A stretch of 38,608 nucleotides of DNA, from NCBI GenBank assembly GCA_036007185.1, contig DASYOZ010000072.1:1-38608 (forward strand), given 5' to 3'. Under the pieces are notes generated by a model. It was given only the letters and a program-made list of their open reading frames with translations. It did no database searches and was not told the origin of the DNA. The translations under genes were made by a program, and so were the position numbers. The number at the start of each line of letters is the position of its first letter. The stretch's first letter is position 1. Origin of the DNA: Gaiellaceae bacterium. Lineage in GTDB: Bacteria; Actinomycetota; Thermoleophilia; Gaiellales; Gaiellaceae. Positions 3,896-37,189 of the stretch are shown in pieces.

Positions 3896-3980
3896 TGCCG
3901 GGGGCGGGACTCGAACCCGCATGGCCCGAGGGCCACCCGATTTTAAGTCGGGCGCGTCTGACCAGTTCCGCCACCCCGGC
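3896..3980 (-). tRNA. tRNA-Leu, anticodon UAA (reads UUA), class II with long variable arm
   Basis: Hand-folded cloverleaf. The acceptor stem is GCCGGGG/CCCCGGC with discriminator A. The anticodon stem is CCCGA/TCGGG with loop CTTAAAA. The variable arm is GGCCC-TCG-GGGCC-like, the T arm is GCGGGTTCGAGTCCCGC, and no CCA is encoded. Confidence 0.9.
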
Positions 3981-5633: not shown

Positions 5634-6647
5634 ATGATCGTCGGACTCCTCATCGTTCTCGTCCTCCTCGCGCTCGGGGCGGCCGTCGTCTGGCTGCCCC
5701 GCATGATCGCAGCCCAGCTCGCGTCGCTGCGCGTGGAAACTGCCCGGCAGCTCGGAGAGCGGAACGCCGAAGTGGACCGCCGTCTCGCCGACGTCACCGA
5801 GACACTCGACCGCCGCCTCGCGAGCAGCGGCCAGACGGCGACGCAGATCCACGAGAAGCTCGGCCAGGTCACGACGGTGATGGCCGAGGTAAACGAGCGC
5901 GCGAAGGATCTGGGGCGACTCGAGCAGGTCCTGCGTCCCCCGAAGGCGCGAGGCGGCTTCGGCGAGCTCCTGCTCGAGAACCTCCTGCGCGACCGGCTGC
6001 CGCCGGAGGCCTACGCGATGCAGCACACGTTTGCGACCGGCGACCGCGTTGACGCCGTGATCCGGGTCGACAGGCTCGTCCCGGTCGACTCGAAGTTCCC
6101 GCTCGACAACTTCGAGCTGATGATCGGAGCCGAGGACGAGGCGCAGCGCCACCTGCACGAGAAGGCCTTCGCCCGCGACGTGAAGAAGCACATCGACGAC
6201 ATCTCGGCGAAGTACATCCTCCCCGACGAGGGCACGTACGACTTCGCGCTCATGTACCTGCCGGCGGAGGCGATCTATTACGAGCTCGTCTCCGGCAAGA
6301 CCGGCCAGCTCCTCACCTACGCGCACGAGCGGCGCGTCTTCCCGGTCTCGGCGACGACCTTCACCGCGTATCTCCAGGTGATCGTGATGGGGCTCAAGGG
6401 GCTCCAGATCGAGGAGACCGCACACGAAGTGATGGCCTACTGCGCAGCGCTGCAGAAGGACTTCGGCAAGTTCCGCGAGGACTTCGAGCTCGTCGGGACG
6501 CACCTCTCGCGGGCGCAGAGCAAGTACGCGGAGGCGGACAAGCGCCTCGACCGCTTCGAGACGCGGCTCGAGCGCGCCGCCGACCTCGAGGTCGACGCCG
6601 CTCCGGCCGAGCCGCCGGCGCTGCCGCGAGCGCTCGACGCCGCCTAG
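5634..6647 (+). CDS. rmuC: DNA recombination protein RmuC
   Basis: N-terminal TM segment and coiled coil. The conserved RmuC core is present (GGFGELLLENLL, VDAVIRVDRLVPVDSKFPLDNFE, DFALMYLPAEAIYYEL). Confidence 0.85.
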   Translation: MIVGLLIVLVLLALGAAVVWLPRMIAAQLASLRVETARQLGERNAEVDRRLADVTETLDRRLASSGQTATQIHEKLGQVTTVMAEVNERAKDLGRLEQVLRPPKARGGFGELLLENLLRDRLPPEAYAMQHTFATGDRVDAVIRVDRLVPVDSKFPLDNFELMIGAEDEAQRHLHEKAFARDVKKHIDDISAKYILPDEGTYDFALMYLPAEAIYYELVSGKTGQLLTYAHERRVFPVSATTFTAYLQVIVMGLKGLQIEETAHEVMAYCAALQKDFGKFREDFELVGTHLSRAQSKYAEADKRLDRFETRLERAADLEVDAAPAEPPALPRALDAA

Positions 6648-13045: not shown

Positions 13046-13640
13046 GGCGACCGTGCCAGATCAGGAGGTGCGGGAAGCGGCCCCAATCGGCGCGCGGCAC
13101 GAGCCGGACAAGATCGCGCTCGATTTTCACAGGGTCATCCTGCCGCGTGAGCCCGAGGCGCTGCGAAAGGCGCCGGACGTGGGTGTCGACGACGATGCCC
13201 TGCGGCTCTCCGAGCTCGGCCGCGACGACGTTGGCCGTCTTCCGCGCGACGCCGGGCAGCCGGATCAGCTCGTCGAGCCGCCGCGGCACCTCGCCGTCGA
13301 ACTCCTCGAGCAGCAGCCGCATCGTCCCCCGCACCGCTTTCGCCTTCTGGCGGTAGAAGCCGGTCGCAAAGATGTCCCGCTCGAGCTCCTCCTGCGGCAC
13401 CGCGAGATAGTCCTCGGGCCTGCGGTACTTCTCGAACAGTGCCTGCGTGACCCGGTTGACGTTCACGTCGGTCGTCTGCGCCGAGAGCATCACGGAGACG
13501 AGCAGCTCGAGCGGGCTCCGGAAGTGGAGCGCGATCGCGGCGTCGGCGTGCTCGGCTGCGAGCCGCTCGATGATCGGCCCGATCCGGTTCTTCTTCGGCC
13601 CGACGCGCCGGCGGGCCTCGTTCAGGTAGCTACGAGGCAA
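12972..13640 (-). CDS. nth: endonuclease III
   Basis: HhH-GPD core (LPGVARKTANVV, VVDTHVRR) and the C-terminal 4Fe-4S cluster CDARRPRCEDCVVNDLC. There is no in-frame ATG, so TTG 13640 is taken as a tentative start. The ORF-track N-terminus (to 14093) is rejected because it overlaps addA. Confidence 0.85.
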   Translation of the reverse strand: MPRSYLNEARRRVGPKKNRIGPIIERLAAEHADAAIALHFRSPLELLVSVMLSAQTTDVNVNRVTQALFEKYRRPEDYLAVPQEELERDIFATGFYRQKAKAVRGTMRLLLEEFDGEVPRRLDELIRLPGVARKTANVVAAELGEPQGIVVDTHVRRLSQRLGLTRQDDPVKIERDLVRLVPRADWGRFPHLLIWHGRRVCDARRPRCEDCVVNDLCPSSRA

Positions 13641-16600
13641 CGGCCTCCGGCAGACGCGGACGCAGGCGCGGGCCGGCACAGACGAGGTCGAGCGCAGGAC
13701 ATGCCGCGCAGGCGAAGTCGCTCGGCGTCGGCGGGAACTCGCCGGCCTGGATCCGCGCGATCGCGGCGGAGAGCTCCGCCTCGAGCTCGACGACGTCAGC
13801 GCGGACGAAGGCGGCCTCGACGGGCACCTCCGGCCGCTCGAGGAAGTGGTAGACAACCTCGACCTCCTCGGCGCCGGCACGGAAGCAGGCGAGCGCGTAG
13901 ACGAGCCGCTGCAGTCGGTAGTCCTGCTCGACGATCTCCTCCGGCGACGCGTCGCCCAGCAGGTTCGTCTTGTAGTCGACGACGAGCGCCCGGCCGTCAG
14001 CGAGATGAAACGCGTCCAAATAACCGTGTACGAGCGCGCCGTCGTGCTCGAAGGTGAAGTGGCGCTCCTTCTGGACGCCGGTGAGGGCCGCAACGCGGCC
14101 GGCGAGATCCGACTGGCAGTACGCGGCCACGAAGCCGCGAATCCGCTCGTCCTCGAGCTCGGGCACGATCGGCTCGGCGAGGTCGAGTTGCTCGAGCAGT
14201 GCGTGGACGGCGCTGCCGACCTCGGTCCCCGTCATCTCGGCGGTTCCGTCGCCTTCGACGGGCCGCTCGCTCATCCCGAGCCCGTAACGGGCGAAGTACT
14301 TGTACGCGCACTGCTCGAAGGTCGAGAGCGCGGTGAAGGACAGCTTGCGCACGCGGAGGAGCGGCGGCTCCGGCAGCGCCACGAGCGGCGGCAGCGCAGG
14401 CCCGGCGAGCGGAGCGGCGACCTCCTCGACGGCCGCGAAGAGTGCCAGCTGCCCCGGCTCGGGCTCATCGGCCGCAACGGCCACGGCTTCTGCGAGCTCC
14501 GGCCGGTAGCGGTCGAGGCGGACGAGCAACCGCGCATCGCCGCGGACGAGCTCGATCGGCACTTCGCCGGCCCGCGCGAGGTCTTCGTCGGCGTCGAGCC
14601 GGTCGAGCACCCATGCGATCGGCGTCGGCACCTCGCGCTCCGAGCCGAGATCGACGGAGCCGGAGATGATCAGCCGTTCCTTGGCCCGCGTCATCGCCAC
14701 GTAGTAGAGGCGCAGGCGCTCGGCCCGCTCCGCCTCCTGCCGCGCCTCCTTCACCGCCTCGTAGTCGAAGGCGCCGCGCCGCCGCGCGGTCACGGGATCT
14801 GCGACGCGGAACCCGAAGCGGCCGTCGGGCAGCGCGAGGATCTCGTCGGGCGACGGCGGCACGCGGTCGCGCCCCGCGTCGGCGACGATCACGACCTTGA
14901 ACTCGAGCCCCTTCGCGGCGTGGATCGTGAGGAGGCGTACCGCGTCGGCGCCCTCCTCCTCGGCGAGCGCCTCGAGCTCGCGCGCGCCGACCGCCTCCTG
15001 CTCGGCGACAAAGCGGACGAAGCCTTCGACGTCCGGGCCGCGGAGCTCCTCGTACGAGCGCGCGAGGCGCGCGAGCTTCCGCATGTTCGCGTAGCGGCGA
15101 CGCCCGTCCCACTGCGCGAGCACGGCGAGGTCGTAGTCGTGCTCGGCGACGATCTGCTCGCACAGCCGCTCGAGCGAGATCCGCGGCATCGCCTCGACAA
15201 GCCGCTCGTAGCGCTGGCGGAAGGCGCGCATCAGCCTCTCGTCGCGGTCCCCGAGGCCTGGCGGCAGCGAGTGCTCGAGGCCGGAGAAGAGTGGCCGCCT
15301 GGACGCAACCCGGCGGAGAAGCGCGAGCGCGTCGTTCGAGACGCCGACGAACGGCGACGCGAGCACCGACAGGAGCGCCACGTCGTCGTAGCGGTTCTGC
15401 AACAGGCGGAGGTACGAGAGCAGGTCGACAACCTGCTGCTGGCCGAAGTAGCCCTTGCCGGTCGTCCGGTACGTGGGCAGCCCCGCTCGGCGCAGCTCGT
15501 CCTCGTACCACTCCGCGTCCGTGCCGGCGGCGAAGAGGAGGACGATCTCGCCCGGCGTCGCGGCCCCGCCGTCCACGAGCTCGCGGACGCGCCGTGCCAC
15601 CGCGCGCGCTTCCCCACGCCGCCAGTGGACGCCGCCGTCCTTGTAGCTCTCCTTGTCGGTGACGAGGAGCTCGACGGGATGGCCGAAGACCGGGTCCGGG
15701 AACTCGACCGCGGCCGCAAGCTCCTGGAACTCGCCGCCGAAGTGGGAGCCGAAGAGCTCGTTGACCGCCGCGAGCACCTCGGGGCGCGATCGGTAATTGA
15801 GCGTGAGCGAGAGAGGCTGCTGGGCGGCCTCGCGCCGCTCGCGGAAGACCTGCACGTCGGCGTGGCGAAAGCCGTAGATGGACTGGAACTCGTCGCCGAC
15901 GAAGAAGAGCTCCGTGTCCGGGGTGCGGAGAAGGTCGACGATCTCGGTCTGCAGCCGGTTCGTGTCCTGGAACTCGTCCACGAGGATCGAGCGGAAGCGC
16001 GCCTGCTCGCGCTCACGCAGATCCGGCTGCAACTGGAGCAGGTCGCGCGCCTCGAGCTGGAGGTCTTCGAAGTCGAGCGCCGACTCGCGCGCCTTCGCCT
16101 CCGCGTACCTCGCGGCGAACAGCGTCAGGAGCTCCTGGAGCAGGGCACGGTCGCGTGCCGCGGCTTCGTCGAGAGCGGCCTGCTCCACGGCCGCGAGCGC
16201 CTCGCAGTACCCGGCCGCACGGTCTCCGCGCACCTTGAAGCCGGTCAGGCTCATCAGCCGGTCGGGGCGACGGTCCCGTTCCAGCAGCTCGAGTAACTCT
16301 GCCGCCGTCCGCTGCTGAGGCTCCGTCGCGTCCGCGTCGGAGACGAGCGAGGTCGCGGCGGCCAGCAACTCGTCGACCCGTTCGGCCAGCTCCGGCCTCG
16401 CGGCCACCGCGAGGTCGAGCTCGCGGCCGGCGGCGCGTAGCGTCTCGTAGACGCTCGTCAGCATCCGGCGCAGCCGGTCACTCCCGTACGTGGCGAGCAG
16501 CTCGAGCCGTTGCGGATCCTCGCCGGCGCAGAACTCCGCGAGGGCCTGCCGGAATGCCTCCGAGCGGAGCACCGCCGCCTGGGCTTCGTCGAGCTCGCGG

Positions 16601-16989
16601 AAACGGGGGTCGAGCCCGGCCGCGAGCGGATAGGCCCTCAACAGCCGGGCGCAGAAGCCGTGGATCGTCGAGATCCAGGCGCCGTCCAGCTCCCGCGCGA
16701 GGTCGTGCCGGCCGCGCTCGGCGAGCGCTGCGCGGATCCGCGTGCGCAATTCCCCGGCGGCGCGGCGGGTGTACGTGATCACGAGGATCGAGTCGACGTC
16801 GAGACCGCGATCGCAGACGGCGCGGACGACCCGCTCGACGAGCACGGCCGTCTTGCCGGTACCGGCGCCGGCGGAGACGAAGACTTCTCCCCCGGCCTCG
16901 ACCGCCGCGAGCTGCTGCTCGTTGAGCTCGTACCCGCTCACGGGCGCTCGATCCGGCACATCGGCCACAGGTCGCACCAGCTCGGGCAC
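13630..16989 (-). CDS. addA: ATP-dependent helicase/nuclease subunit A (UvrD-type motor + C-terminal PD-(D/E)XK nuclease)
   Basis: Walker A SAGAGTGKT, motif II VDEFQDTN, the TIHAAKGLEF and YVAMTRAKE helicase motifs, and nuclease motif VVDYKTN. An alternative GTG start at 16941 would form a GTGA overlap with the addB stop. It contains an in-frame TTA codon at 16294-16296. Confidence 0.85.
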   Translation of the reverse strand: MPELVRPVADVPDRAPVSGYELNEQQLAAVEAGGEVFVSAGAGTGKTAVLVERVVRAVCDRGLDVDSILVITYTRRAAGELRTRIRAALAERGRHDLARELDGAWISTIHGFCARLLRAYPLAAGLDPRFRELDEAQAAVLRSEAFRQALAEFCAGEDPQRLELLATYGSDRLRRMLTSVYETLRAAGRELDLAVAARPELAERVDELLAAATSLVSDADATEPQQRTAAELLELLERDRRPDRLMSLTGFKVRGDRAAGYCEALAAVEQAALDEAAARDRALLQELLTLFAARYAEAKARESALDFEDLQLEARDLLQLQPDLREREQARFRSILVDEFQDTNRLQTEIVDLLRTPDTELFFVGDEFQSIYGFRHADVQVFRERREAAQQPLSLTLNYRSRPEVLAAVNELFGSHFGGEFQELAAAVEFPDPVFGHPVELLVTDKESYKDGGVHWRRGEARAVARRVRELVDGGAATPGEIVLLFAAGTDAEWYEDELRRAGLPTYRTTGKGYFGQQQVVDLLSYLRLLQNRYDDVALLSVLASPFVGVSNDALALLRRVASRRPLFSGLEHSLPPGLGDRDERLMRAFRQRYERLVEAMPRISLERLCEQIVAEHDYDLAVLAQWDGRRRYANMRKLARLARSYEELRGPDVEGFVRFVAEQEAVGARELEALAEEEGADAVRLLTIHAAKGLEFKVVIVADAGRDRVPPSPDEILALPDGRFGFRVADPVTARRRGAFDYEAVKEARQEAERAERLRLYYVAMTRAKERLIISGSVDLGSEREVPTPIAWVLDRLDADEDLARAGEVPIELVRGDARLLVRLDRYRPELAEAVAVAADEPEPGQLALFAAVEEVAAPLAGPALPPLVALPEPPLLRVRKLSFTALSTFEQCAYKYFARYGLGMSERPVEGDGTAEMTGTEVGSAVHALLEQLDLAEPIVPELEDERIRGFVAAYCQSDLAGRVAALTGVQKERHFTFEHDGALVHGYLDAFHLADGRALVVDYKTNLLGDASPEEIVEQDYRLQRLVYALACFRAGAEEVEVVYHFLERPEVPVEAAFVRADVVELEAELSAAIARIQAGEFPPTPSDFACAACPALDLVCAGPRLRPRLPEAVAS

Positions 16990-19874
16990 TCGCCGCCGAG
17001 AGGGTCATGGAGGACATCGCCCGCCTGCATCCGCTCTGCGAGCGAGGTCGCGGTCTCGCGCGCCGACTCGACGGCGCCCCAGAACGCCTCTTCGTCGAGG
17101 TAATCGTGCGAGACGTAGCCCGGCAGCGTCTCGGCCTCCGAGCCGCGAACGAGGCCTCGCGGCTTGCGCGCCCCCGCGAGCGGCCGGTAGAGGCCGCCGA
17201 GCGGTTCCAGCCCGACGAGGTCGCGCAGAACGAGCATGTAGAGCGGGATCTGGAGCCGCAGCTCGCTCTCGATCTGCCGGGCCGAGTGCGCGGTCTTGCC
17301 GGACTTATAGTCCTGGACGATCCCGCGCGCGCCGAACGGGTCGACGTCGATCCGGTCGATCTTGCCGGAGAGGGTCAGGCCCGGCGCGAGCTCGAGCCCG
17401 CGCTGCAACTCCGGCGCAGCGCGGTCGCTGCCGAACGAGACCTCGAAGCGCCGGGGCACGAGCTGCAGCTGCGACTCACACTCCTCCTCCACGAACGCGG
17501 AGAGGTCGCGCCACAGCGTCTGGTCGAGCTCCCGCTCCTGCATCTCGGTGAGGTCCATCCGCACGCCGGCGAGCGCCTCGTCGAGGCAGCGGCGCATGAG
17601 CCCGGTCGCCGCCTCTACGTGTTGTGGCTCCAGCTTCTCGACCCCGAGTTCCGCCGGCACCCGCGAGAAGAAGCGGTGCAGGGCGTTGTGCGCGACGCTG
17701 CCGCGCTGCTTCGCGTCGGGCTCCGCGTCGATCGTCCTCGGTGAGAGGAACCGCTCGACGAACCAGGCGGACGAGCAGTCGGCGAAGCGCTCGAGCTCGG
17801 TCACGGCGAAGGTGGTGCGCGCGGCGAGCTGCTCGAGCACGAGCGGGTGCGTGATCCTCGTCGGCCGCCGGAACGCCGCGCGGGCGCGGTCGAGTCTCCG
17901 CTCCCACCCGTTCGCATGGGCGAGCGCCTCCGCCGCGGCCGGATCGCGGGCGGCGAGCTCGGCTAGCGCCCGCAGCCGCTCGCGCTCTGTCGGCGCTTCC
18001 TCGAGCGGCCAGGTCAGCGCCGAGAGCGGGCGGCGGCGTGTCCAGCGCCGAACGTCGTCACGGTCGAAGAGCGCCTGCACGTCGTGCCAAAACGGGCTTG
18101 CCTCGCGCGGGCTGCCGTCATCGTCGGCCGCTTCGCGGACGAGATAGAGCCGCTCCGAGGCGCGCGTGCAGGCGGTGTAGAAGAGGTACCGATCCCGCGC
18201 GACCCGGTCGGGCCGGGCCAGCCGCGCTCCGCGCTCGTCGAGCCCTCGCCGCGCCTCGTCGTCGAGGAACGGCGAGCCGGCGCCGCGGCGCGGCAGGCTC
18301 CCCTCCTCCAAGCCGAGGACGAAGACGGCGTCGAAGCGCCGCGTGCGGGCGCGCAGGAGGTCGACGACCGCGACGCGACCCGCCTCGTCGCCCAGTCGCG
18401 GACGAAGCGCGGCCCGCTCGACCGCGGCGAGCACGTCCTCGCGGCTCAGGTCTCCGCTGAGGTCGCGCCAGCGCTCGAGCTCCGCGAGCAGCCGGGTCAA
18501 GGCCTCGTGGGCTCTGAGGTCGAGCCGGCTCGCAGCATCCGCAGGCGGCCGCTCGACGCCGTACGCGTTCCGCAGCATCCGCTCCGCGAGCTCCCACACC
18601 GCCGCGATCGGGTCGGCCGCTTCGCGCAGCTCGGCGAGAGCAGGCAGCGGCGCGTCGCGCAGCCGCTCGGCCTCGTCGACGACCCGCTCCGGCATCTGCA
18701 CGGCGCGGCCGCGCAGGCGCCCCTCCACGAAGTCGACCGACCGCCGCTCGAGCCCCGAGAACGGCGAGCGGAGGAAGCGGAAGAGGTCGTTCCGCGTCCC
18801 TCCTCCCCACGCGAAGCGCAACATCGCCGCGAGCGCGTTCGCGAGCGGCGTCTGCGTGAGCCGGAGCTCGCCGTCGATCGCGTACGGGATGCCGCACGAG
18901 CCGAGCGCCGTCTCGAGCGCACCACGCAGCCGGTCGTATCCCGGCACCACGAGCCCGATCCGCTCCGGCGGCATGCCGGCGCGGGCGAGCGCGAGCACCT
19001 CCTCGCCGACGAGCTCGAGCGTTCCGCGGCTTCCCGCGCCCTCGAAGAAGCGGATCGCGCCGTCGATGGGCGGCGCGGCCCCCGGCTCGTCCGCGAACAG
19101 CGCACGCTCGAGGTGCGCGAGGGCCGGGGGCGCGATCGCCGCGTAACGCGGCGGCAGCTCCTCGGCCCCCGACGTCGCGAGGCCGGCGAGATCCTCGGCC
19201 GTCCGGCGGAGCGCGGCAAAGGCCGGCCTGCCCGGCTCGTAGGGAAGCGAGACCGTCACCTCGGTGCGCGCGGCGAGCGCCTCGAGCAGCGCCCACTCCG
19301 CGCCGGTGAGATCCTCGAAGCCGTAGGCGAACACCGGCTCGTCGTGCCAGGCGTCGAGATCGGTCAGGAGACGCTCGACCGCGCGGTCGCGAAGGAGGCC
19401 GCGGTCCCACCGTCCGAGCCGGTCGAGCTCGGCGCGGTACGCGGCGTAGAGCGTGCCGAGCTCCCCCCCGACCTCTCCCGGAGCGAGCAGCCCCGACTCG
19501 AGCTCGTCGAGCGCCTGTATGAGCGAGTCGACGAAGCCGACACGCGCAGCTGACCCGGCGAAACCAGCGAGCTCGGCGCCGTTCACGACGCGACGCACGA
19601 GCAGCGTTCGCTCCGTCTGCCCGAGCCGCGGCCGTAGATCTCTGGCGCCGTCGGCGAGACGTGAAAACACGTCGTCGAAAGTGCCGATCGCGCCCCCGAG
19701 GAGCGCCGACCGCCGCGCCAGGAGCTCGAGCTGGACGCGGTCGACGTCTGCCCGGTTCGGCACGATCAGCACGGGCTCGGCCCCGCCGGGAGACTCAAGC
19801 GCCTCGAGGTAGCGGCCAAGCAGAAGCTCGACCTTGCCCGCGTTGGCGGGCCCCGCGATGAGGCGCAGCGGCAC
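16938..19874 (-). CDS. addB: helicase/nuclease subunit B (AddB-type: degenerate P-loop, RecB-like nuclease, Fe-S cysteines)
   Basis: N-terminal GPANAGKV, nuclease motif IVQDYKSGK, and a cysteine set FADCSS ... CPSWCDLWPMC that resembles the AddB iron-staple cluster. GTG start at 19874. Confidence 0.8.
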   Translation of the reverse strand: MPLRLIAGPANAGKVELLLGRYLEALESPGGAEPVLIVPNRADVDRVQLELLARRSALLGGAIGTFDDVFSRLADGARDLRPRLGQTERTLLVRRVVNGAELAGFAGSAARVGFVDSLIQALDELESGLLAPGEVGGELGTLYAAYRAELDRLGRWDRGLLRDRAVERLLTDLDAWHDEPVFAYGFEDLTGAEWALLEALAARTEVTVSLPYEPGRPAFAALRRTAEDLAGLATSGAEELPPRYAAIAPPALAHLERALFADEPGAAPPIDGAIRFFEGAGSRGTLELVGEEVLALARAGMPPERIGLVVPGYDRLRGALETALGSCGIPYAIDGELRLTQTPLANALAAMLRFAWGGGTRNDLFRFLRSPFSGLERRSVDFVEGRLRGRAVQMPERVVDEAERLRDAPLPALAELREAADPIAAVWELAERMLRNAYGVERPPADAASRLDLRAHEALTRLLAELERWRDLSGDLSREDVLAAVERAALRPRLGDEAGRVAVVDLLRARTRRFDAVFVLGLEEGSLPRRGAGSPFLDDEARRGLDERGARLARPDRVARDRYLFYTACTRASERLYLVREAADDDGSPREASPFWHDVQALFDRDDVRRWTRRRPLSALTWPLEEAPTERERLRALAELAARDPAAAEALAHANGWERRLDRARAAFRRPTRITHPLVLEQLAARTTFAVTELERFADCSSAWFVERFLSPRTIDAEPDAKQRGSVAHNALHRFFSRVPAELGVEKLEPQHVEAATGLMRRCLDEALAGVRMDLTEMQERELDQTLWRDLSAFVEEECESQLQLVPRRFEVSFGSDRAAPELQRGLELAPGLTLSGKIDRIDVDPFGARGIVQDYKSGKTAHSARQIESELRLQIPLYMLVLRDLVGLEPLGGLYRPLAGARKPRGLVRGSEAETLPGYVSHDYLDEEAFWGAVESARETATSLAERMQAGDVLHDPLGGECPSWCDLWPMCRIERP

Positions 19875-19883
19875 CCGCTTAAG

Positions 19884-20116
19884 CTAGCGCGCGAGACCTG
19901 CGGTCTCACGCGCTGGGACAAACGAACTCCGCGCGCCGAGAGTGCGATCTCGGGCACGCTCCGTGCTGTTCTGGTTTTTGATGCTCTGAACGAGAGCGTT
20001 GCCTGGTGCGCTCGCGCGCGGCGGAGGCCGGCGCGAGCGCAGTTCGGCCTGCGGCTAAGCCCCCGCTAAAGCGGATGTCTTAGCCTCCGGCCCTTTGCCT
20101 AGTTCTGGTTGAAGCG
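19884..20116 (+). repeat. Copy A of a ~230-nt hairpin-rich intergenic repeat
   Basis: Hand alignment to 22561-22791 in the same orientation, roughly 85% identical. Long identical blocks include GGTGCGCTCGCGCGCGGC, CGGCCTGCGGCTAAGCCCCCGCTA and GCGGATGTCTTAGCCTCCGGCCCTT. Confidence 0.85.
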
Positions 20117-20135
20117 GCGGTGGCGCCGTATCGTT

Positions 20136-20351
20136 TCAGACTGTGGCTGACTTGGGTCGGCGGCCGCGGCGGGCGGCGGCGCGGCCCGGCATCTTGCCGG
20201 CGCACGGGTCGCAGAGGTCGGCCTGCTTCGCCCCGCGGCGCGCGTCGGTGTACGTGACGCGCATCACCGCACCCTTTCCTTCGTCGACCTCGCTGCCACA
20301 GCTGTCGCACACGAGCACCGTTTTCCGAGCCACCGTTCTCCTCCTTCGCAT
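20136..20351 (-). CDS. small Zn-ribbon protein (CDSC...CDPC) with an Arg-rich C-terminal tail
   Basis: High GC3. An AAGGAGGAGAAC Shine-Dalgarno sits directly before an internal GTG at 20333, so the real start may be 20333 (65 aa). Two CxxC pairs and the tail AARRGRRPK. Confidence 0.55.
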   Translation of the reverse strand: MRRRRTVARKTVLVCDSCGSEVDEGKGAVMRVTYTDARRGAKQADLCDPCAGKMPGRAAARRGRRPKSATV

Positions 20352-20392
20352 GGGGCGATTTACGTGGAAACCTTATAGAAACTCGAGTGCAA

Positions 20393-21433
20393 CTATGCGG
20401 CGTCTCGTGCGCGCCTGATAGCCAAGAACGAAGCAGACTGAGCATCGCCTGCTCTTCGGGCAACAGCGCGGCATCCCGTGCCTTGACCACCCGCAAATGG
20501 CGGGGCCGGAAATCGTCGATCGTTCGTCCCTCGAGGTACTGCTCGACAACCGCAGGCGAGACATAAGACTCTCGCGTCACGGCAGGCGTATTTCCGAGTT
20601 GCTTCGCGACACGCTGCATGACAGACGTGATCGATCGCTTCTGCTCCCGTTCCGATTGCGGAAATCCCTGCCGGTCCATACCTTCCGCAAAGTAGATCGC
20701 GGCGAGGAGCGTGCCGCCCCCCGTCCGGGAGTCCTTGGCGCTGAATTCCTCCCCGAGCTAGATCTTCACGTAGTCGTTCAGCCGTTTGCTCGTGAGGTTG
20801 TAGAGGTCGTCCTCCCAGCGGTACTTGAAGACCCGCGGGCCACCCCCTGACCTGCAGGAGGCCGCGGATCTCGTCCGCCAGGTCCTTGTCGACGAGCTCG
20901 GAGCGCACTCGAATTCCGGCTTTCGACGGGAACGAGAGCCTGATTCGCCTGCCGCGGACATGGACTTGCCGCCTGAGCAGCGTCGTGACGCCGTAGGTTC
21001 CCTCCCGCGCATATCGCTCGGAGCCGACGCGGAACCAGCCGAGCGAGATGACGCGAAGCGCGATGGCCGAGACGCGCTCGCGGTCGAGCTCGTCCTTGTC
21101 GAGGTGCTCCGTCATTGCGGCGCGCAATTCCGGCAGGCGTTCCCCGAAGCGGATCAGGCCGTCGTACTTCGCCTCCTCCTGCGCCGCCCGGTAGTCCGGG
21201 TGGTAGAGGTACTGCTTCCGGCCCGCCTTGTCGTAGCCGGTCGCCTGCAGCTTCGCGTAGGGGCGCGGCGAGATCCAGACGTCGGTCCACGCCGGCGGAA
21301 TCGCGAGCGACTCGATTCGAGTGATCCGCTCCTCGTCGCCGATGCGCCTGCGGTTCCGGTCGAGATAGCGGAACCGCCCCTTGCTTCCGGCACGCAGCCA
21401 GCCGCCGCGTGGCCTGTTCCGCTCCTCCGACAT
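20393..21433 (-). pseudogene. DNA topoisomerase IB (poxvirus-like bacterial type), disrupted
   Basis: The N-terminal 190 aa are intact (RYLDRNRRRIGDEERITRIESLAIPPAWTDVWIS...LQATGYDKAGRKQYLYH). The frame switches at a C5 run (20843-20847). An in-frame TAG lies at 20758-20760 within NDYVKI*LGEEFSAKDSRT. The catalytic region LGNTPAVTRESYVSP continues in the shifted frame. Confidence 0.75.
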
Positions 21434-21490
21434 GTCCGCGGATTGTGGACCGCACCGGCGGATGCGAAACCGGTACTAGGATCGAATCCG

Positions 21491-22564
21491 ATGCGCGACG
21501 AGCGGACGATCGTCGTCCTCGAGGGCGACGAGACGGGACAGGAGCTGCTGGAGGAGGGCCTGCGCGTTCTCGAGCCCGGCGTGATCGGGGTCGAGCTCGA
21601 CTTCCCGCGGTTCGATCTCTCCCTCGACCGCCGCCGCGAGACCGACAACGGGGTCGTCCACGAGGCGGCGGCGGCGATCCGCGAGCACGGGCCCGGGTTG
21701 AAAGCGGCGACGATCACGCCCGAGGGCCGCGGCGACATCGGATCTCCGAATCGCATCCTTCGCGAGGAGATCGGCGGCAAGGTCATCGTCCGCACCGGCC
21801 GGCGGATTCCGGGCGTCGCGCCGCTCGGCGGCGTCCACGCGCCGATCTCGATCGTGCGGATGGCGGTCGGCGACGCCTACGGCGCGAAGGAATGGCGCGA
21901 GGGCGAGGGCGACGACGAGGTCGCCTTTCGTACCGAGCGGATCGAGCGCCGCATCTGTCACGCCGTCTCCGAGTTCGCGTTCCGCCAGGCAGAGCGGATG
22001 AGCGCCAAAGTGTTCGGCGGCCCTAAGTACACCGTCAGCCCGACGTACGAGGGGATGCTCAAAGAGGAGATGGACGCAGCCGCCGAGCGCCATCCGGACG
22101 TGCCCTACGAGCCACAACTGATCGACGCGACGTTCGCGCTCCTCCTCTCCTCCGCCGGCGACCCGCTCGTGATCCCCGCCCTCAACCGCGACGGCGACAT
22201 CCTCTCGGACCTCGTCCTGCCGCTCTTCGGCTCGATCGCCGGCTCGGAGTCGCTGCTCGTCGCCTTCGAATCGGACTTCGAGCCCGCGGCGATCATGGCC
22301 GAGGCGGCCCACGGGACAGCGCCGTCCTTGCAGGGGAAGAACGTCGCGAACCCGATCGCGATGATCCTCGCGGGAGCGGCGCTCCTGTCGCATGCGGGCG
22401 ACGAAGCGCAGTCCGCCGGCCGCGCGATCCGCGAGGCGTGCCTCGAGGCGGTCGGGCAGGGCGCGCGCACGGCCGATCTAGGAGGCCACCTCGGCACGCG
22501 CGAGTTCACCGACGACGTGATCGACCGCGTCCGCGCGAAGCTGGAGGTCTGGGCGGCGCTCTAG
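21491..22564 (+). CDS. isocitrate/isopropylmalate dehydrogenase family oxidoreductase
   Basis: NRDGDILSDL and AHGTAPSLQGKNVANPIAMILAGA motifs. ATG 21491 (MRDERTIVVLEGDETGQELL) is in frame inside the longer ORF 20825..22564. Confidence 0.85.
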   Translation: MRDERTIVVLEGDETGQELLEEGLRVLEPGVIGVELDFPRFDLSLDRRRETDNGVVHEAAAAIREHGPGLKAATITPEGRGDIGSPNRILREEIGGKVIVRTGRRIPGVAPLGGVHAPISIVRMAVGDAYGAKEWREGEGDDEVAFRTERIERRICHAVSEFAFRQAERMSAKVFGGPKYTVSPTYEGMLKEEMDAAAERHPDVPYEPQLIDATFALLLSSAGDPLVIPALNRDGDILSDLVLPLFGSIAGSESLLVAFESDFEPAAIMAEAAHGTAPSLQGKNVANPIAMILAGAALLSHAGDEAQSAGRAIREACLEAVGQGARTADLGGHLGTREFTDDVIDRVRAKLEVWAAL

Positions 22565-22791
22565 CTCGCGAGACCTGCGGTCTCGCTCGCTGGGAGACCG
22601 AACTCCGCCGCCGGGAGAGCGCGGTCTCCCGGCGGCTCCGTGCTGTTCTGGTTTCGATGCTCTAGACGAGAGGGCTGCCCGGTGCGCTCGCGCGCGGCAG
22701 AGGCCGGCACGAGCGCAGTCCGGCCTGCGGCTAAGCCCCCGCTACGCGGATGTCTTAGCCTCCGGCCCTTCGCCGGGTTCTCGTTCACGCG
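22561..22791 (+). repeat. Copy B of the ~230-nt hairpin-rich repeat
   Basis: See copy A. It starts on the TAG stop codon of the IDH-like gene (CTAGC). It contains a perfect 12-bp hairpin at 22607-22636. Confidence 0.85.
22607..22636 (+). terminator. 12-bp perfect GC hairpin followed by a T-rich tract, possibly the terminator of the IDH-like gene
   Basis: GCCGCCGGGAGA-GCGCGG-TCTCCCGGCGGC, followed by TCCGTGCTGTTCTGGTTTC. It lies inside repeat copy B. Confidence 0.3.
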
Positions 22792-22857
22792 CTCTCGAAC
22801 CTTCACCACGACGGGAGTGCGATCCCGAACCTTGCGTCAGCCCCCGTGTGTCCTCAG

Positions 22858-23424
22858 CTAAGAGGCAGCGGCGTGCCAGACGTCCCAGCCATCTGCCCAC
22901 GCATCGACGAACAGCTCCGCTGCCAGCGGGTCGAACTGCGTTCCGGCTCCGTGCTCCACCTCGGCGAGCGCGTGCTCGTGGGTGAGAGCGCGGCGGTACG
23001 GCCGCGGCGAGATCATCGCGTCGAACGCGTCGGCAATCGCGAGGATCCGCGCCTCGATCGGGATGGCGTGGCCCTTCAGCCCCGCCGGGTAACCGCCGCC
23101 GTCCCAGCGCTCGTGGTGGAAAAGGACGTAGGGAAGCGCCACCCGGAACCTGCGCAGCGGCATGACCAGTTGGGCGCCGGCGCTCGGGTGGGCGCGGATC
23201 TCCGCCATCTCCTCGAGTGTGAGAGGGCCGGCTTTGCCGAGCAGCTGTGGTCGGACCTTCACCTTCCCGATGTCGTGGAGCGGGGAAGCAAAGCGGAGCG
23301 TCCGGATCCGCTCCCGGTCCCACCCGAGCTCCCGGGCGACGGGCTCGGCGAGCGCCGCGACGCGGTCGCCGTGGCCGAGGGTCTGGTCGCGCTGCTCGAG
23401 TGCGCGGGCGATCGAGTGGAGCAT
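22858..23424 (-). CDS. stand-alone HD-GYP domain protein (putative cyclic-di-GMP phosphodiesterase)
   Basis: LHDIGKV and HHERWDGGGYPAGL motifs. No sensor or receiver domain is present. Confidence 0.85.
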   Translation of the reverse strand: MLHSIARALEQRDQTLGHGDRVAALAEPVARELGWDRERIRTLRFASPLHDIGKVKVRPQLLGKAGPLTLEEMAEIRAHPSAGAQLVMPLRRFRVALPYVLFHHERWDGGGYPAGLKGHAIPIEARILAIADAFDAMISPRPYRRALTHEHALAEVEHGAGTQFDPLAAELFVDAWADGWDVWHAAAS

Positions 23425-34748: not shown

Positions 34749-35320
34749 CTACGACGTTGGCTCGACGACCTTGGTGACGACCCAGCGATGCTTGCCGATC
34801 TTGCAGTCGCGGGAGAATCCCAGCTTTTCGTAGGTCGACAAGGCGCCGTTGAAGAGGAAGCCGGCAGGAACCGAACCCGCGTCCTCGGGATAGCCCTCTA
34901 CGTTGCCACCGCCGAGACTGGCGATCAGTTCGAGCGCCCGACGAGCGCCGCCGTGGCGACGCCCTTGCGACGGTGCCCCTTGCCCACGAAGTTGCAGGCG
35001 ATCCGCCAGTCCGGCAGGGTCGTGAGGCTCTCCTCGTAGGCAGCCCGGTTCTTGATCTTTGCCACCTCGTCCGGGGCGCCGAACTGGCACCAACCCACGC
35101 AGTCGTCGCCCTCGAGCACAAGAGCCGCATGCGCCGTACCTGCCCGCACCCGTGCGAGCTTGCGTTCCTTGTTCAACGCCGGCTCGCGGCCGTCAACCGG
35201 ATGGAAGCCCATGCACCAACAACCCCCGAAGACGCCGTTGTTCGCCTCGACCAACCTGGCGAACGCATCCCAGCTCGACTCATCGAGAGCCTTGATCGTG
35301 TACCCCGACCCCACCACCAA
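34749..35320 (-). pseudogene. GNAT family acetyltransferase, frameshifted
   Basis: ORF 34925-35320 (…GGCWCMGF…NFVGKGHRRKGVATAALVGRSN*) continues in another frame as ORF 34749-35093 (…ALELIASLGGGNVEGYPEDAGS…YEKLGFS…). The junction is at a GGG run (plus strand CCC, 34937-34939). Confidence 0.7.
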
Positions 35321-35353
35321 CTCAGACTGTCCGCCGGCTATCCAAGCACTGGG

Positions 35354-35382
35354 CTGGGCCGGTGTTCGGGAATGACCCCTGA
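35354..35382. repeat. Copy 1 of a perfect 29-nt intergenic repeat, CTGGGCCGGTGTTCGGGAATGACCCCTGA
   Basis: Identical to 37150-37178, checked base by base. It lies between the DUF1003 stop (35406) and the GNAT start (35320). Confidence 0.9.
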
Positions 35383-35405
35383 AAGAGGAGCAGACGGTCG
35401 GCTAT

Positions 35406-35909
35406 CTAGCTCTGCTTCGTGAGGAGCCCGTGGATCTGCTTCGCTAATTCCGCGACCTGCTCGGTCAACTCCTTGTCTTCTTGCGTCAGCGTTGTGTTGG
35501 ACTGGAGCAACTCGAGGAGCTTGTCGGTCTCGGCCCTCGCGGCTCGCTCGATCCGTTCATGGTTCTTGTCGATCCGATCGGAATGGAGCTTGTCTCGGTC
35601 GGCTTGACGGGTTTGCGCGAGCAGGATGAGCGGCGCTGCGTAAGCGGCCTGTAGCGAGAACAGAAGGTTCAGAGCGATGAACGGGTAGACATCCCAGGCG
35701 AAGCCGAGATGCAGCTGGGTGGAGTTCAGGACCACCCATGCGAGGACGGCGAAGGTCTGGCCCACGATGTACTGCGGCGTGCCGAAGAATCTGGCGGCCT
35801 TCTCCGCCATCCGCCCGAAAGCGTCGGTGCCGAACGCACTATGCAGCTCGGCGCGGCGAGACTCCAATGGGCTCAAGAGTTGATCTTCACGATTCGAGGA
35901 CACGACCAC
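35406..35909 (-). CDS. DUF1003 domain-containing membrane protein
   Basis: YPFIALNLLFSLQAAYAAPLILLAQTRQADRDK is the DUF1003 signature. GTG start. It contains an in-frame TTA codon at 35445-35447. Confidence 0.75.
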   Translation of the reverse strand: MVVSSNREDQLLSPLESRRAELHSAFGTDAFGRMAEKAARFFGTPQYIVGQTFAVLAWVVLNSTQLHLGFAWDVYPFIALNLLFSLQAAYAAPLILLAQTRQADRDKLHSDRIDKNHERIERAARAETDKLLELLQSNTTLTQEDKELTEQVAELAKQIHGLLTKQS

Positions 35910-36084
35910 CCCGCCTGTTCTCTGGGTGACAGTCCGTTCCTCTGCCGGCGGCTACACGGGTGGCCAGTTCGCCTGGACGATCGCCGAGTAGCTGCGACCT
36001 GTCTAGACCTATCCGTGGCGTGGACCGGCTTGTGCCGCGAGCAGCACGGGATTTGCCGTCGCCGAAACCGGGGAAACCGCAGGC

Positions 36085-36264
36085 ATGAAGAAGCTTCTCG
36101 AAATCCTCGTCTGCTTCGTGCACCCGCTCGCCGTCGTGCTCGCCTGGATCAACCTCGCCGGCCGGAGTGACCTGGGCGGCGGCCAGAAGCTCGCCTGGGG
36201 CGTCTTCCTGATCGTGCCGGTCGTGCCTTTCCTCTACGTCCTGACCGGCGGCGACCTTTGGTGA
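36085..36264 (+). CDS. small membrane protein, PLD-nuclease N-terminal (PLDc_N)-like, 59 aa (below the ORF-track cutoff)
   Basis: Hand translation: MKKLLEILVCFVHPLAVVLAWINLAGRSDLGGGQKLAWGVFLIVPVVPFLYVLTGGDLW*. Two TM helices with a K-x-x-W linker typical of PLDc_N domain proteins. High GC3. Confidence 0.6.
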   Translation: MKKLLEILVCFVHPLAVVLAWINLAGRSDLGGGQKLAWGVFLIVPVVPFLYVLTGGDLW

Positions 36265-36369
36265 GCTAGAGGCGCGGCTTGCCAGCCCTCATCGTTCGCC
36301 GGCCAGAAGTCGGGGGACGCCGTGCGAGCCCATGGACGAGGAGCATCGCCGCGCTTCCTGGCTCCCATC

Positions 36370-36747
36370 TCAGCCGGCGAATCGCATCTCGAACCGACTG
36401 ACCTTCCCGTCGCGGATCGTCAGCTCGAAGCTGCGATCTCGACTGTAGGACAACTCGCCCGTCGCCTTCGACCGATAGAGCAAACGTATCTCGCAGGAAT
36501 ACCGTCCGCCGCCCCTGCCCTTCCAATCACCGTTCTGGAACTCGACCTCGAGACTCTCGGCCGGCCGCGCACGACTCAACTCCTCGGTGATCGCGTCGAC
36601 CCCATGCAGGGAGTGCTGAGGCATGACGCACTCCACATCCGGTGCGAGGAGCGCGACAACCGGCCCGAAGTCGCCCGTGCGCAGCGCAACTTCGGCAACC
36701 GTTTGGAACTGCTGGGCGATGTCGAGGTCTGGAGCGCGCATTTCCAC
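36370..36747 (-). CDS. nuclear transport factor 2 (SnoaL-like) family protein
   Basis: 125 aa. The N-terminal alpha region has GDFGPVVALLAPDVECVMP, followed by beta-rich SCEIRLLYRS...SFELTIRDGKVSRFEM. The assignment is by pattern and was not searched against a database. Confidence 0.5.
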   Translation of the reverse strand: MEMRAPDLDIAQQFQTVAEVALRTGDFGPVVALLAPDVECVMPQHSLHGVDAITEELSRARPAESLEVEFQNGDWKGRGGGRYSCEIRLLYRSKATGELSYSRDRSFELTIRDGKVSRFEMRFAG

Positions 36748-36867
36748 TGGTCGTCCGGAGCGTGAGTCGCCGTTCCATCCGCAACCTCATCCCGGCGGGA
36801 TGAGGTCAGCGCTGTCCAGCGAAGCGGACGTTCGCCTGAGCCAGCCCGGAATGGCCCCTGACGGTTC

Positions 36868-37101
36868 TCAGCCGCCGGCGCGACGACCGCGGTGGTTGGC
36901 AACGACACCCGCGGCGATCAGCAAAGCCGCGATCGCGAGGCTGATGCCGCCCGCCAGGTGCGCATCCATCTGACTACCGGCGATCCTGATGTAGGTCCGT
37001 CCGGAGCCCTCCCTGAAGGTGAGTGCGAAGACGCCGTAGAGCGCGAACAGCGCGCCGATCACGAACAGCGGTAACGAGAGCGCGCAGCGCAGCACCTTCA
37101 T
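36868..37101 (-). CDS. hypothetical 77-aa membrane protein (two TM)
   Basis: LSLPLFVIGALFALYGVFALTF and GGISLAIAALLIAAGVVA hydrophobic segments. It contains an in-frame TTA codon at 37072-37074. Confidence 0.45.
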   Translation of the reverse strand: MKVLRCALSLPLFVIGALFALYGVFALTFREGSGRTYIRIAGSQMDAHLAGGISLAIAALLIAAGVVANHRGRRAGG

Positions 37102-37149
37102 ACACGGCTGGACGCTAGCTACCTCGTCCGCAGGAGTCAGAACGGTGGC

Positions 37150-37178
37150 CTGGGCCGGTGTTCGGGAATGACCCCTGA
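37150..37178. repeat. Copy 2 of the perfect 29-nt intergenic repeat
   Basis: Identical to 35354-35382. It lies between the DUF202 stop (37190) and the start of the 77-aa membrane protein gene (37101). Confidence 0.9.
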
Positions 37179-37189
37179 GGAGACAGGCG

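Follow-up and report, generated by a model that had tools for sequence, protein, structure and literature searches.

Two hairpin-rich repeats in a Gaiellaceae genome as probable truncated members of a dispersed non-autonomous element family

Two repeats among host genes

The window analysed here, a 38,608-nt stretch of a Gaiellaceae bacterium (assembly GCA_036007185.1, contig DASYOZ010000072.1, positions 1 to 38,608), carries two repeats in the same orientation, copies A and B, separated by a small open reading frame, a topoisomerase IB gene and an Iso_dh-family gene, with addB beyond copy A and a convergent HD-domain gene beyond copy B (Table 1). A first-pass annotation made from the sequence had proposed the repeat, and it is real: 19884-20116 and 22561-22791 align by blastn at 85.5% identity over 235 columns (E 3.4e-70), and a global alignment gives 203 matches, 25 mismatches and 8 gap columns in 236 (86%), near the roughly 27 substitutions and 4 indels counted by eye. 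Its reading of the left edges also stands: CTAG opens each copy, copy A beginning at a TAG, 10 nt from the addB GTG (19874), and copy B at the stop codon (TAG, 22562-22564) of the Iso_dh gene. The extent that it gave for copy B (231 nt) is too short; 22792-22857 is family sequence too, and the inserted DNA, about 293 nt, reaches 22857. Searches with blastn and nhmmer returned no further family copy in the window.

Pfam supports the assignments of AddB, topoisomerase IB (Top1B_N_bact/Topoisom_I) and Iso_dh, but not that of the proposed Zn-ribbon gene, a 70-aa ORF without a Pfam match. The topoisomerase gene, which had been called multiply disrupted, has a single detectable frameshift, near residue 188, and the closest relative, L001, carries the same frameshifted allele. 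Exact look-ups of the window's Iso_dh and HD proteins found neither on record. The TAGCTT hexamer noted near addB is present, but it is not derived from the element: a TAG-containing counterpart, TAGCGT, occurs in relatives without copy A, so the hexamer pre-dates the element. In relatives lacking the element, TA/TAG likewise pre-exists at the left junction of copy A (...CGCTAGCGCG...).

Table 1. Coordinates of the repeats, their parts and the neighbouring genes in the window
Feature	Position	Strand	Basis or remark
Copy A	19884..20116	+	nhmmer against profile of full-length copies: profile positions 5-238 only
CTAG, left junction of copy A	19884..19887	.	filled versus empty site comparison
Copy A terminal hairpin H1, GCGCGCGAGACC-TGC-GGTCTCACGCGC	19887..19913	+	folds, family alignment, covariation
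Copy A left inverted module	19914..19983	+	recurs inverted at right end of full-length copies
Copy A core hairpins H4 (20006-20042), H5 (20046-20092)	20006..20092	+	family alignment, covariation
Host genes between the copies	20136..22564	.	context only, outside any mobile unit
Zn-ribbon ORF	20136..20351	-	70 aa
Frameshifted topoisomerase IB	20393..21455	-	Pfam Top1B_N_bact/Topoisom_I
Iso_dh gene	21491..22564	+	Pfam Iso_dh
Iso_dh-family gene TAG stop, flush with copy B left tip	22562..22564	+
Copy B	22561..22857	+	CTAG plus ~293-nt insertion 22565-22857; nhmmer, relatives' alignment
Copy B terminal hairpin H1, GCTCGCGAGACC-TGC-GGTCTCGCTCGC	22564..22590	+	folds
Copy B left inverted module including H2 (22609-22634), with T-rich tract	22591..22659	+
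Copy B core hairpins H4 (22682-22718), H5 (22722-22767)	22682..22767	+
Convergent HD-domain gene stop (CTA on + strand), flush with copy B truncated right edge	22858..22860	-
Probable recombination tract carrying copy B	22499..22891	.	window-versus-L001 mismatch clustering

Both window copies are truncated members of a ~450-nt element, and neither has its right end. Copy A spans the left tip to hairpin H5 plus a short tail, with the entire right half and right end missing; its left module comprises, in order, GGGAC..GAACTCCGC, hairpin H2 (19933-19959), TCCGTGCTG and a T-rich tract. Copy B covers profile positions 7 to about 262, skips H6 and H7, and resumes at about 330-385 (22807-22857), without the right inverted module or right tip.

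The two copies also differ in age and origin. Copy A is common to the local population of relatives at 99.7-99.9% identity, and is 100% identical in L001-L003; it is missing from L007/L008, L010 and L012. Copy B is missing from all six contigs of these 99.7-99.9%-identical relatives, which read TAG-GG-CTA instead, so that among them a copy between the Iso_dh and HD stop codons occurs only in the window. Against L001 the window is 99.73% and 99.86% identical over 21 kb without gaps, copy B being the sole structural difference; 15 of the 44 mismatches fall in 22499-22556 and 22861-22891. This cluster around copy B suggests import by recombination, probably on a short tract, and recombination, not transposition in this lineage, may be what placed copy B here. 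The identity of copy B is 90% with the copy at L023, 88% with that at L045 and 85.5% with copy A; each window copy has nearer kin in other genomes than in its partner, so the pair is not a local duplication. Of the origins suggested in the first pass, remnants of insertion therefore fits each copy taken singly, whereas remnants of duplication does not. Nor do the repeats bracket the 2.4-kb segment as a unit, as had been proposed: compared across relatives, the segment is not present or absent as a whole, and the order Zn-ribbon, topoisomerase IB, Iso_dh persists in L001-L006, contigs from JGI soil metagenomes that have copy A without copy B, and in L007 and L012, which have neither.

A family of structured elements at gene ends

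Pattern scans returned 33 metagenome and 16 genome matches, from which blastn and nhmmer confirmed 47 copies at about 28 sites. The hosts are Gaiellaceae/Thermoleophilia-type MAGs and soil metagenomes, and every confirmed genome match falls in a MAG labelled Actinobacteria, Actinomycetes, Thermoleophilia or Gaiellaceae; assemblies with matches include VAXA01 ('AC_20'), DASXDE01 (Gaiellaceae), CAWCLA01, CAWEJU01 and JAICSH01. Near-identical strains have gained or lost copies, which, together with this spread over many sites, bears out the suggestion of a dispersed REP/MITE-like family. Our literature search found no described repeat family for Gaiellales or Thermoleophilia and no paper tying either to MITEs, REPs or REPINs, and the element is apparently undescribed. 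In phage and plasmid collections, BLAST with copy A and a full-length copy gave only a 40-nt chance match, of the GC-rich H4 palindrome in a Curtobacterium LysM gene, and scans of viral contigs with two conserved blocks gave zero matches apart from two chance 17-mers.

The intact unit of ~450 nt is non-coding and runs from a terminal GC hairpin through a left module (GGAACTSCGC, hairpin H2, GCTCCGTGCTG), a T-rich tract and hairpins H3 to H7 to an inverted module and a terminal hairpin, such that the first ~85 nt recur inverted ~450 nt away. Family copies have no open frame in common, and 111 of their 140 gap runs are not multiples of 3, which leads us to reject coding potential for the core and agrees with the earlier view that both window copies are non-coding. 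The H4-H5 region is the most conserved part of the family, although the conservation of H5 is inflated, since both scan patterns lie in it.

The hairpins are maintained across the family. In the predicted structure 95.5% of cells are paired and 36 pairs show compensatory changes, values that none of 500 shuffles reached, while slid controls were 37-41% paired; invariant pairs number 10 of 13 in H6 and 12 of 17 in H5. Compensatory substitutions maintain the pairing equally well on both strands, and Alifold energies are -179.0 for one strand and -180.4 for the other. We discarded a strand call from 61 G-U versus 21 A-C mismatches as circular, because the structure had been predicted on that same strand; a strand-neutral test, of low power and using pairs predicted on both strands, was without bias (G-U 27, A-C 20, other mismatches 22, from 12 sequences and about 70 mismatched cells).

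Where does such an element sit in a compact genome? Most copies lie in very short spacers at gene ends, mainly between convergent genes, and their junctions read TAG/.../CTA (slashes mark the element's edges), the triplets being in-frame stop codons of the flanking genes. The left junction is NTAG/C in about 21 of 28 cases, the base before TAG varying (C > G > T), and CTA(N) stands at most right junctions. In about 17 copies an ORF of 200-716 codons ends in frame on the left triplet, and in about 12 a convergent ORF of 187-693 codons does so on the right one. At both empty sites with convergent genes the stops lie 2-3 nt apart: TAG-GG-CTA for copy B and TAG-CTC-CTA at L028. The outermost 25-30 nt, by contrast with the core, fall into at least five unrelated hairpin types, left and right types differing within one copy, and at L043, L063 and L033 host coding sequence itself forms the tip hairpin. 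The orientation of copies relative to flanking genes is not fixed.

Several loci record how copies change. L028 is an empty site for the full-length copy L019a, and deletion in place is seen in L019b and L028. Decay proceeds by internal deletion, short forms rejoining to right tips, and a 155-nt mini copy lies at L051 (210-370). At L023 and L027 the core is inverted between collinear flanks, and it can flip in place via recombination between the inverted modules. No mobilising gene, and no RAYT (Y1/HUH) gene in particular, was found in the window or beside or between copies within the ~8-20 kb read around each match. Recurrent neighbouring proteins, taken as transposase candidates, proved to be only syntenic host genes, and the ORFs between paired copies encode an S13 peptidase and a Na/Ca exchanger.

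Mobility and competing explanations

We think it likely that copies A and B belong, independently of each other, to a dispersed family of non-autonomous mobile elements in Gaiellaceae/Thermoleophilia-type soil actinobacteria and that, having lost their right ends, they are probably immobile; dead remnants of a REPIN/MITE-like element is the best reading of both. The gene for the enzyme that mobilises the element in trans would lie elsewhere in the genome; the element would enter at TA/TAG, and tips of the form (TA)G...C(TA) would keep a TAG stop on both strands, so that insertions at gene ends could be tolerated.

Recognition of single-stranded DNA hairpins by HUH/tyrosine transposases has been proposed for REP/REPIN elements. 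By analogy, we tentatively suggest, short of even odds, that an enzyme of the RAYT or IS200 type recognises the hairpins of this family as ssDNA; the preference is drawn from the conservation of tip structure rather than tip sequence, the host hairpins that replace H1, and the lack of a G-U over A-C bias. An IS630-type DDE transposase would account just as well for the TA found on both sides, often as part of CTAG.

An IS630/Tc1-mariner-type MITE is, overall, a somewhat unlikely but substantial alternative, in which the ~85-100-bp terminal inverted repeats are recognised as dsDNA by a DDE transposase whose gene lies elsewhere, and the element is cut out and pasted at TA, preferably CTAG, with TA duplicated. 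Insertion of IS630-family elements takes place at TA and duplicates these 2 bp, IS630 itself favouring the TA of 5'-CTAG-3' (PMC2170065, citing Tenzen & Ohtsubo 1991). The junctions partly agree: in both window empty sites TA occupies the precise point of insertion, TA also flanks most a-type tips, most copies with such ends reading TA/GCTCGCG...CGCGAGC/TA, and among left tetranucleotides CTAG is the most frequent. Long inverted repeats form the ends, and both are retained in deletion derivatives down to the 155-nt mini copy. However, b-type ends are followed by 0-10 nt without a consistent TA, and full-length L019a lacks TA on one side. Comparisons for TA duplication (the short copy in L017 against L065, L066, L069 and L070, and L019a against L028) involve flanks that are too diverged, and the loci compared include no exact empty/filled pair for a both-ended copy in a near-identical genome. 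A dsDNA-binding transposase would also have no need of the internal hairpins that compensatory changes maintain, nor is it easily squared with tips that are unconserved in sequence, of at least five hairpin types and different at the two ends of one copy, or with host-derived hairpins standing in for H1 at three loci; no IS630-like gene was found in the window or loci.

We regard as improbable a functional structured RNA, multiplied or riding on a mobile element, whose fold is under selection and so explains the covariation; it might act as a 3'-UTR or a terminator/insulator between convergent genes, or as a guide or scaffold RNA. The covariation strongly supports a multi-hairpin architecture with conserved unpaired stretches, single-sequence folds of the window copies have z-scores of -3.9 to -5.0, read-through transcripts of both neighbouring genes would cover the copies, and the T-rich tract after H2 is conserved despite a 70% GC genome, with weak terminator-like matches there in both window copies. 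Both strands nevertheless fold equally well with no G-U over A-C asymmetry, orientation to flanking genes varies, the core flips in place, and genomes that are otherwise intact freely carry truncated or internally deleted copies. Region 19700-23000, which holds both window copies, yielded no sigma-70-type promoter. An Rfam search, proposed in the first pass and now run, matches the repeat to no known RNA family: at the gathering threshold Rfam 15 finds only a tRNA-Leu in the window, which a tRNA/tmRNA scan also finds alone and elsewhere than the repeats; in 19700-23000 at E up to 10 there are only weak matches below gathering scores (13-22 bits, E 2.6-6.5), none covering the repeat as a unit; and the seven loci with full-length copies give nothing at E up to 0.1. 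The repeats may, as suggested earlier, be paralogous small RNA genes; they have no Rfam match and no strand asymmetry in their pairing.

A long shot, in our estimate, is that the core of ~290-350 nt, with its seven hairpins closed by long-range pairing of the inverted modules, is a functional nucleic acid rather than passive cargo. In the manner of IS200/IS605 omega RNAs or IS110 bridge RNAs, it might be a guide or scaffold RNA, or ssDNA, needed in cis or trans by the mobilising enzyme; another possibility is an insulator between convergent genes, co-opted by the host.

A local event, whether segmental duplication or a composite or integrated 2.4-kb element with the copies as its long direct repeats and the Zn-ribbon, topoisomerase IB and Iso_dh genes as its cargo, is hardly credible, for although the copies are directly oriented and flank three genes, one of them frameshifted, and in relative L043 family copies likewise lie to either side of topoisomerase IB and Iso_dh, the sequence affinities and relatives described above speak against it, the truncation points of the two copies differ internally, and in a family this common (three copies in 8.6 kb at L017) two copies 2.7 kb apart are unremarkable.

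Relation to known elements and significance

A dispersed, non-autonomous mobile family, as we read it, invites comparison with several known systems. GTAG REPs are found between ORFs that converge or run in the same direction, and often provide the TAG stop with their termini (PMC3733652); REPINs consist of two REPs in inverted orientation and are believed to fold into hairpins as ssDNA or RNA (PMC3337134). The family resembles RAYT-associated, GTAG-tagged REPs and REPINs in its multi-copy, non-autonomous nature, its GC-rich palindromes behind a TAG-containing tag (NTAG at ~21/28 left junctions), its placement and stop-codon termini, and its inverted pairs that fold into a larger hairpin whose structure is kept by compensatory change (PMC3733652, PMC3337134). 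REPINs, however, are ~60-150 nt long with a poorly conserved spacer between REPs of the same group (PMC3337134), whereas the interior here, the best-conserved part, is ~350 nt long and furnished with seven or more further hairpins, and variation falls on the terminal hairpins, whose types often differ between one end and the other. Unlike in GTAG REPs, the base before TAG is not a fixed G, and unlike for RAYT systems, no RAYT gene was found for the family in the window and loci.

Like BIMEs, copies combine palindromic units with conserved linkers over several hundred bp at gene 3' ends, and variable numbers of terminal hairpins are stacked at their edges (L017, ~237-300; L051, 300-370). BIMEs are arrays of one or two REP types, which also occur as singletons; in this family, by contrast, no standalone REP-like hairpins of the terminal types were found outside elements, and the core has a single fixed architecture.

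Bacterial MITEs derived from IS630/Tc1-mariner elements include Correia/NEMIS and RUP. IS630/Tc1-mariner-derived MITEs share with the family TA at both junctions with a CTAG preference (PMC2170065), terminal inverted repeats, and a character of small non-coding deletion derivatives lying in intergenic DNA close to genes; the family differs in inverted ends that are unusually long (~85-100 nt) and themselves built of hairpins, in tips that are not conserved in sequence, and in a conserved and structured core, and no parent IS was found for it in the window or loci. IS200/IS605-derived PATEs offer a further parallel: their ends bear hairpins, they insert directly 3' of a specific short motif without an obligatory duplication, and the constraint on them acts on ssDNA. 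The ends of IS200/IS605 elements are not inverted repeats of each other, and such elements insert in one orientation, whereas in this family one end is an inverted copy of the other and the same site can hold either orientation.

What the finding means for the locus is that the 2.4-kb segment was a false lead, neither mobile nor duplicated, and that the repeats are decayed copies of a genome-wide element. Gaiellales and Thermoleophilia are among the commonest soil lineages and have few cultured members; to them the family adds an abundant and architecturally unusual non-autonomous element, and it shows how mobile DNA persists in a compact, 70% GC genome by occupying the 2-3-nt gaps between convergent stop codons while keeping a TAG for each strand. 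In soil MAGs such copies are expected to cause assembly breaks and gene-calling artefacts, with ORFs running into the tips and altered C-termini, and strains can readily be told apart by their pattern of presence and absence. Should the conserved core turn out to be functional, it would represent a new class of structured nucleic acid; as a guide, a scaffold or an insulator it would also make the family a new class of mobile element, structured and embedded in stop codons, in which hairpins at gene ends, including those supplied by the host, would be part of recognition.

Two separate insertions flank the topoisomerase region

The window holds two directly repeated sequences, copies A and B, which the first-pass annotation had judged about 85% identical by eye. 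That estimate is borne out by blastn (85.5% over 235 columns, E 3.4e-70) and by global alignment (203 matches, 25 mismatches and 8 gap columns, 86%), and a search with blastn and nhmmer found no third copy in the window, whose GC content is 69.7%. Copy A does begin 10 nt from the addB GTG, and copy B on the Iso_dh TAG.

Features of the window bearing on the repeats
Feature	Position	Strand	Basis
tRNA-Leu (anticodon TAA), long variable arm	3896-3980	-	Rfam/ARAGORN
AddA	13630-16989	-	Pfam
AddB	16938-19874	-	Pfam
Copy A	19884-20116		blastn
70-aa ORF (first-pass Zn-ribbon), no Pfam family	20136-20351	-	
Topoisomerase IB	20393-21455	-	Pfam
Iso_dh-family gene	21491-22564	+	Pfam
Copy B, part aligned to copy A	22561-22791		blastn
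Copy B, resumed family sequence	22807-22857		
HD-domain gene	22858-23424	-	Pfam

Homologues of the Iso_dh protein with a named source bear the label Gaiellaceae or, once, Candidatus Limnocylindrales, and the majority are from soil metagenomes. An Iso_dh protein 98% identical to the window's is encoded on six contigs (L001-L006) drawn from different JGI metagenomes, and L001 matches the window without gaps at 99.73% over 11,074 nt and 99.86% over 9,999 nt. Copy A is present in L001-L003 at 100% identity; copy B is present in none of the six, where the Iso_dh and HD stops lie 2 nt apart (TAG-GG-CTA). Comparison with relatives, a check proposed in the first-pass annotation, reveals presence and absence of the copies but not of a 2.4-kb unit between them: gene order is kept with both copies missing in the more distant L007/L008 and L012/L013. 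Neither copy occurs in L010/L011, which lack topoisomerase IB altogether. Where copy A is absent, its site reads ...CGCTAGCGCG..., and the empty sites of the L001 type and of the distant relatives together place both insertions directly 3' of a pre-existing (C)TAG.

The same spacers are occupied elsewhere. L043 (Iso_dh 93% identical) also has family copies in both, the one between addB and the Zn-ribbon gene being reversed relative to the window's copy and placed at another TAG, and a copy between Iso_dh and HD in L041 has cost the HD gene its last ~14 codons. The bracketing in the window therefore reflects repeated use of two short spacers. Local duplication, another of the origins first proposed, is rejected because each copy is nearer to copies in other loci than to its partner: copy B to those in L023 (90%), L045 (88%) and L019 (87%), and copy A likewise at ~87%, which makes the two separate arrivals of different family variants. 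The Iso_dh|HD junction varies beyond the element, with two extra small ORFs in L007, a 381-aa ORF in L010, and a 215-nt spacer and 145-aa ORF in L012 (comparison across L007/L008, L010/L011 and L012/L013).

How did copy B enter this population? Of the 44 mismatches between the window and L001, 15 fall within 58 nt to its left and 35 nt to its right, and this clustering suggests that the copy B allele was probably brought in on a short recombination tract. Tight clusters in addA, at 14344-14468 (8 in 125 nt) and 16165-16186 (3 in 22 nt), stand out from a background of ~1 per 700 nt and look like other such tracts in the same population.

The TAGCTT noted earlier at the edge of copy A is indeed present (19881-19886, minus strand, 6 nt before the addB GTG), and matches the actinobacterial -10 pattern (TANNNT), spaced as in leaderless mRNA. 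Relatives without copy A have TAGCGT here, so the putative -10 is older than the element, which inserted at the TA of the hexamer; the former upstream region of this putative promoter is replaced by the terminal hairpin H1.

Topoisomerase IB, previously described as multiply disrupted, carries only one frameshift, close to residue 188 (tblastn against the intact L007 protein, frames -2 then -3), and its two halves retain 72-81% identity to that protein. The allele is identical in L001, the closest relative, and is thus fixed in the population rather than a sequencing error in the window. Elsewhere in the window, GC content falls to 60-66% at ~35200-37200, where there are only short ORFs (<170 aa) and no Rfam match, amid otherwise dense long genes.

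A dispersed family of hairpin-rich elements

The suggestion of a dispersed, REP/MITE-like family proved right. Exact-pattern scans with two blocks, both within hairpin H5, found 33 metagenome and 16 genome loci, and blastn with an nhmmer profile resolved 47 copies (score >100) at ~28 distinct sites, 70-90% identical. All nhmmer-confirmed genome matches are in metagenome-assembled genomes labelled Actinobacteria (AC_20, four contigs), Actinomycetes, Thermoleophilia or Gaiellaceae; a scan match in an Actinomycetota genome (L049) lacked nhmmer support, and pattern matches in other phyla are chance 18-mers. We found no published description of such elements in the Gaiellales/Thermoleophilia lineage.

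In most loci the first ~85 nt recur inverted ~450 nt away. From left to right, a full-length element comprises a terminal GC hairpin of several sequence types (H1); GGGAnAAGGAACTSCGC; hairpin H2, with a variable lower stem and then GAGA-GCGCGG-TCTC; GCTCCGTGCTG and a T-rich tract; hairpins H3, H4 and H5; a GTTCGAA-type palindrome; hairpin H6 (GGCGGCGGCGTAACG...); hairpin H7; CAGCACGGAGC, hairpin H2' and GCGCAGTTCC; and the terminal hairpin H1'. Copy A spans profile positions 5-238 without the right end. Copy B runs from 7 to ~262, skips H6 and H7 and resumes at ~330-385, ending at CCTCAG|CTA, where it abuts the HD stop, with the right module missing. Both are probably immobile remnants, and each folds well on both strands (z-scores -3.9 to -5.0).

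For 12 non-redundant copies of full length, RNAalifold predicts 14 helices comprising 117 pairs, with 95.5% of cells paired and compensatory change in 36 pairs (by pair count). None of 500 shuffles attained these values, and slid controls were only 37-41% paired, with covariation scores of 0.04-0.06 against 0.257 observed. Compensatory changes lie mostly in H1, H2, H2', H7 and H1', and H4, H5 and H6 are nearly invariant, the conservation of H5 being inflated by the scan patterns; four copies found without either pattern have the same architecture.

A coding element is rejected, in keeping with the first-pass view of both copies as non-coding: family members share no reading frame, and 111 of 140 core gap runs are not multiples of three. 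Nor did a known RNA emerge from the Rfam check: Rfam 15 matched only the tRNA-Leu in the window (also the sole ARAGORN match), with no credible match over the repeats at thresholds as loose as E = 10, and was negative for seven loci with full-length relatives. We discarded an initial count of 61 G-U against 21 A-C as circular, the structure having been predicted on the counted strand. Over 103 pairs predicted on both strands there are 27 G-U, 20 A-C and 22 other mismatches, and the strands have similar fold energies (-179.0 and -180.4 kcal/mol). In this low-power test both strands seem to be constrained to Watson-Crick pairing, and hairpins at the DNA level fit the strand data better than an RNA from one strand.

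Stop codons, decay and mobility

The left junction reads NTAG|C(T/G)CGCG in ~21 of 28 distinct copies, and the right mostly ...CGCGAGC|TA or ...|CTA(G). A 200-716-codon ORF stops in frame at the left TAG in ~17 copies, and a convergent 187-693-codon ORF at the right CTA in ~12. The two available empty sites are both convergent stops 2-3 nt apart (TAG-GG-CTA in L001, TAG-CTC-CTA in L028). The YkuD gene of L017 ends in a TAG flush with its copy; relatives without the copy have TGA followed by a spacer of 10 nt, or of 23 nt in L070.

Some tips are built from host sequence. In L043 (~290-340), L063 (~6400-6445) and L033 (~395-425) the hairpin at the H1 position consists of the flanking gene's last codons, and similar tips occur in L044 and L054, the stop codon falling in stem or loop. 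The L043 tip accompanies an altered Zn-ribbon C-terminus (SATSA* versus SATAA*), and even in the element-free L012 these codons form a weaker hairpin. The terminal hairpin types were found only within family members in the loci examined. At the L019 tip (5246-5262, minus strand) a convergent 661-codon ORF enters by four codons, with its TGA inside H1. Its empty-site orthologue in L028 has a different, longer C-terminus, so insertions can alter the C-terminal residues of proteins encoded by the host.

Short forms (L024, L059b, L036/39/50, L027, L028) are internal deletions rejoined to a right tip; at one site L019b is full-length and its L028 orthologue lacks 219 nt in place. A 155-nt copy in L051 (210-370) has only two modules around H2 and no core. 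L023 (3619-4081) and L027 (874-1153) share a site with flanks and outer module collinear at 93% and the core inverted, which points to inversion in place, the inverted modules having recombined with each other. In L051 and L017 (~237-300) two or three different terminal hairpins are stacked with TA between them, as if such hairpins were added or exchanged at element edges.

The elements would be mobilised in trans; searches of the window, of the DNA separating paired copies and of proteins that recur beside copies turned up no transposase. Two routes fit. Mobilisation by an IS630/Tc1-mariner-type DDE transposase agrees with the TA at both junctions, since these elements duplicate TA and IS630 prefers CTAG (PMC2170065); we hold this route to be somewhat less likely than the other. 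We tentatively favour HUH (RAYT/IS200-type), REPIN-like mobilisation, which would account for tips that vary in sequence yet stay structured, for hairpins taken from host sequence and for the lack of wobble bias. Hairpins, provision of TAG stops and a position between convergent ORFs are features of GTAG-tagged REPs and REPINs (PMC3733652, PMC3337134); compared with REPINs, the present elements have hybrid tips and a long, conserved interior. The element is REPIN/BIME/MITE-like. Its family is non-autonomous and occurs in multiple copies; these differ in presence from strain to strain, are under constraint to keep their hairpins and are lodged at stop codons.
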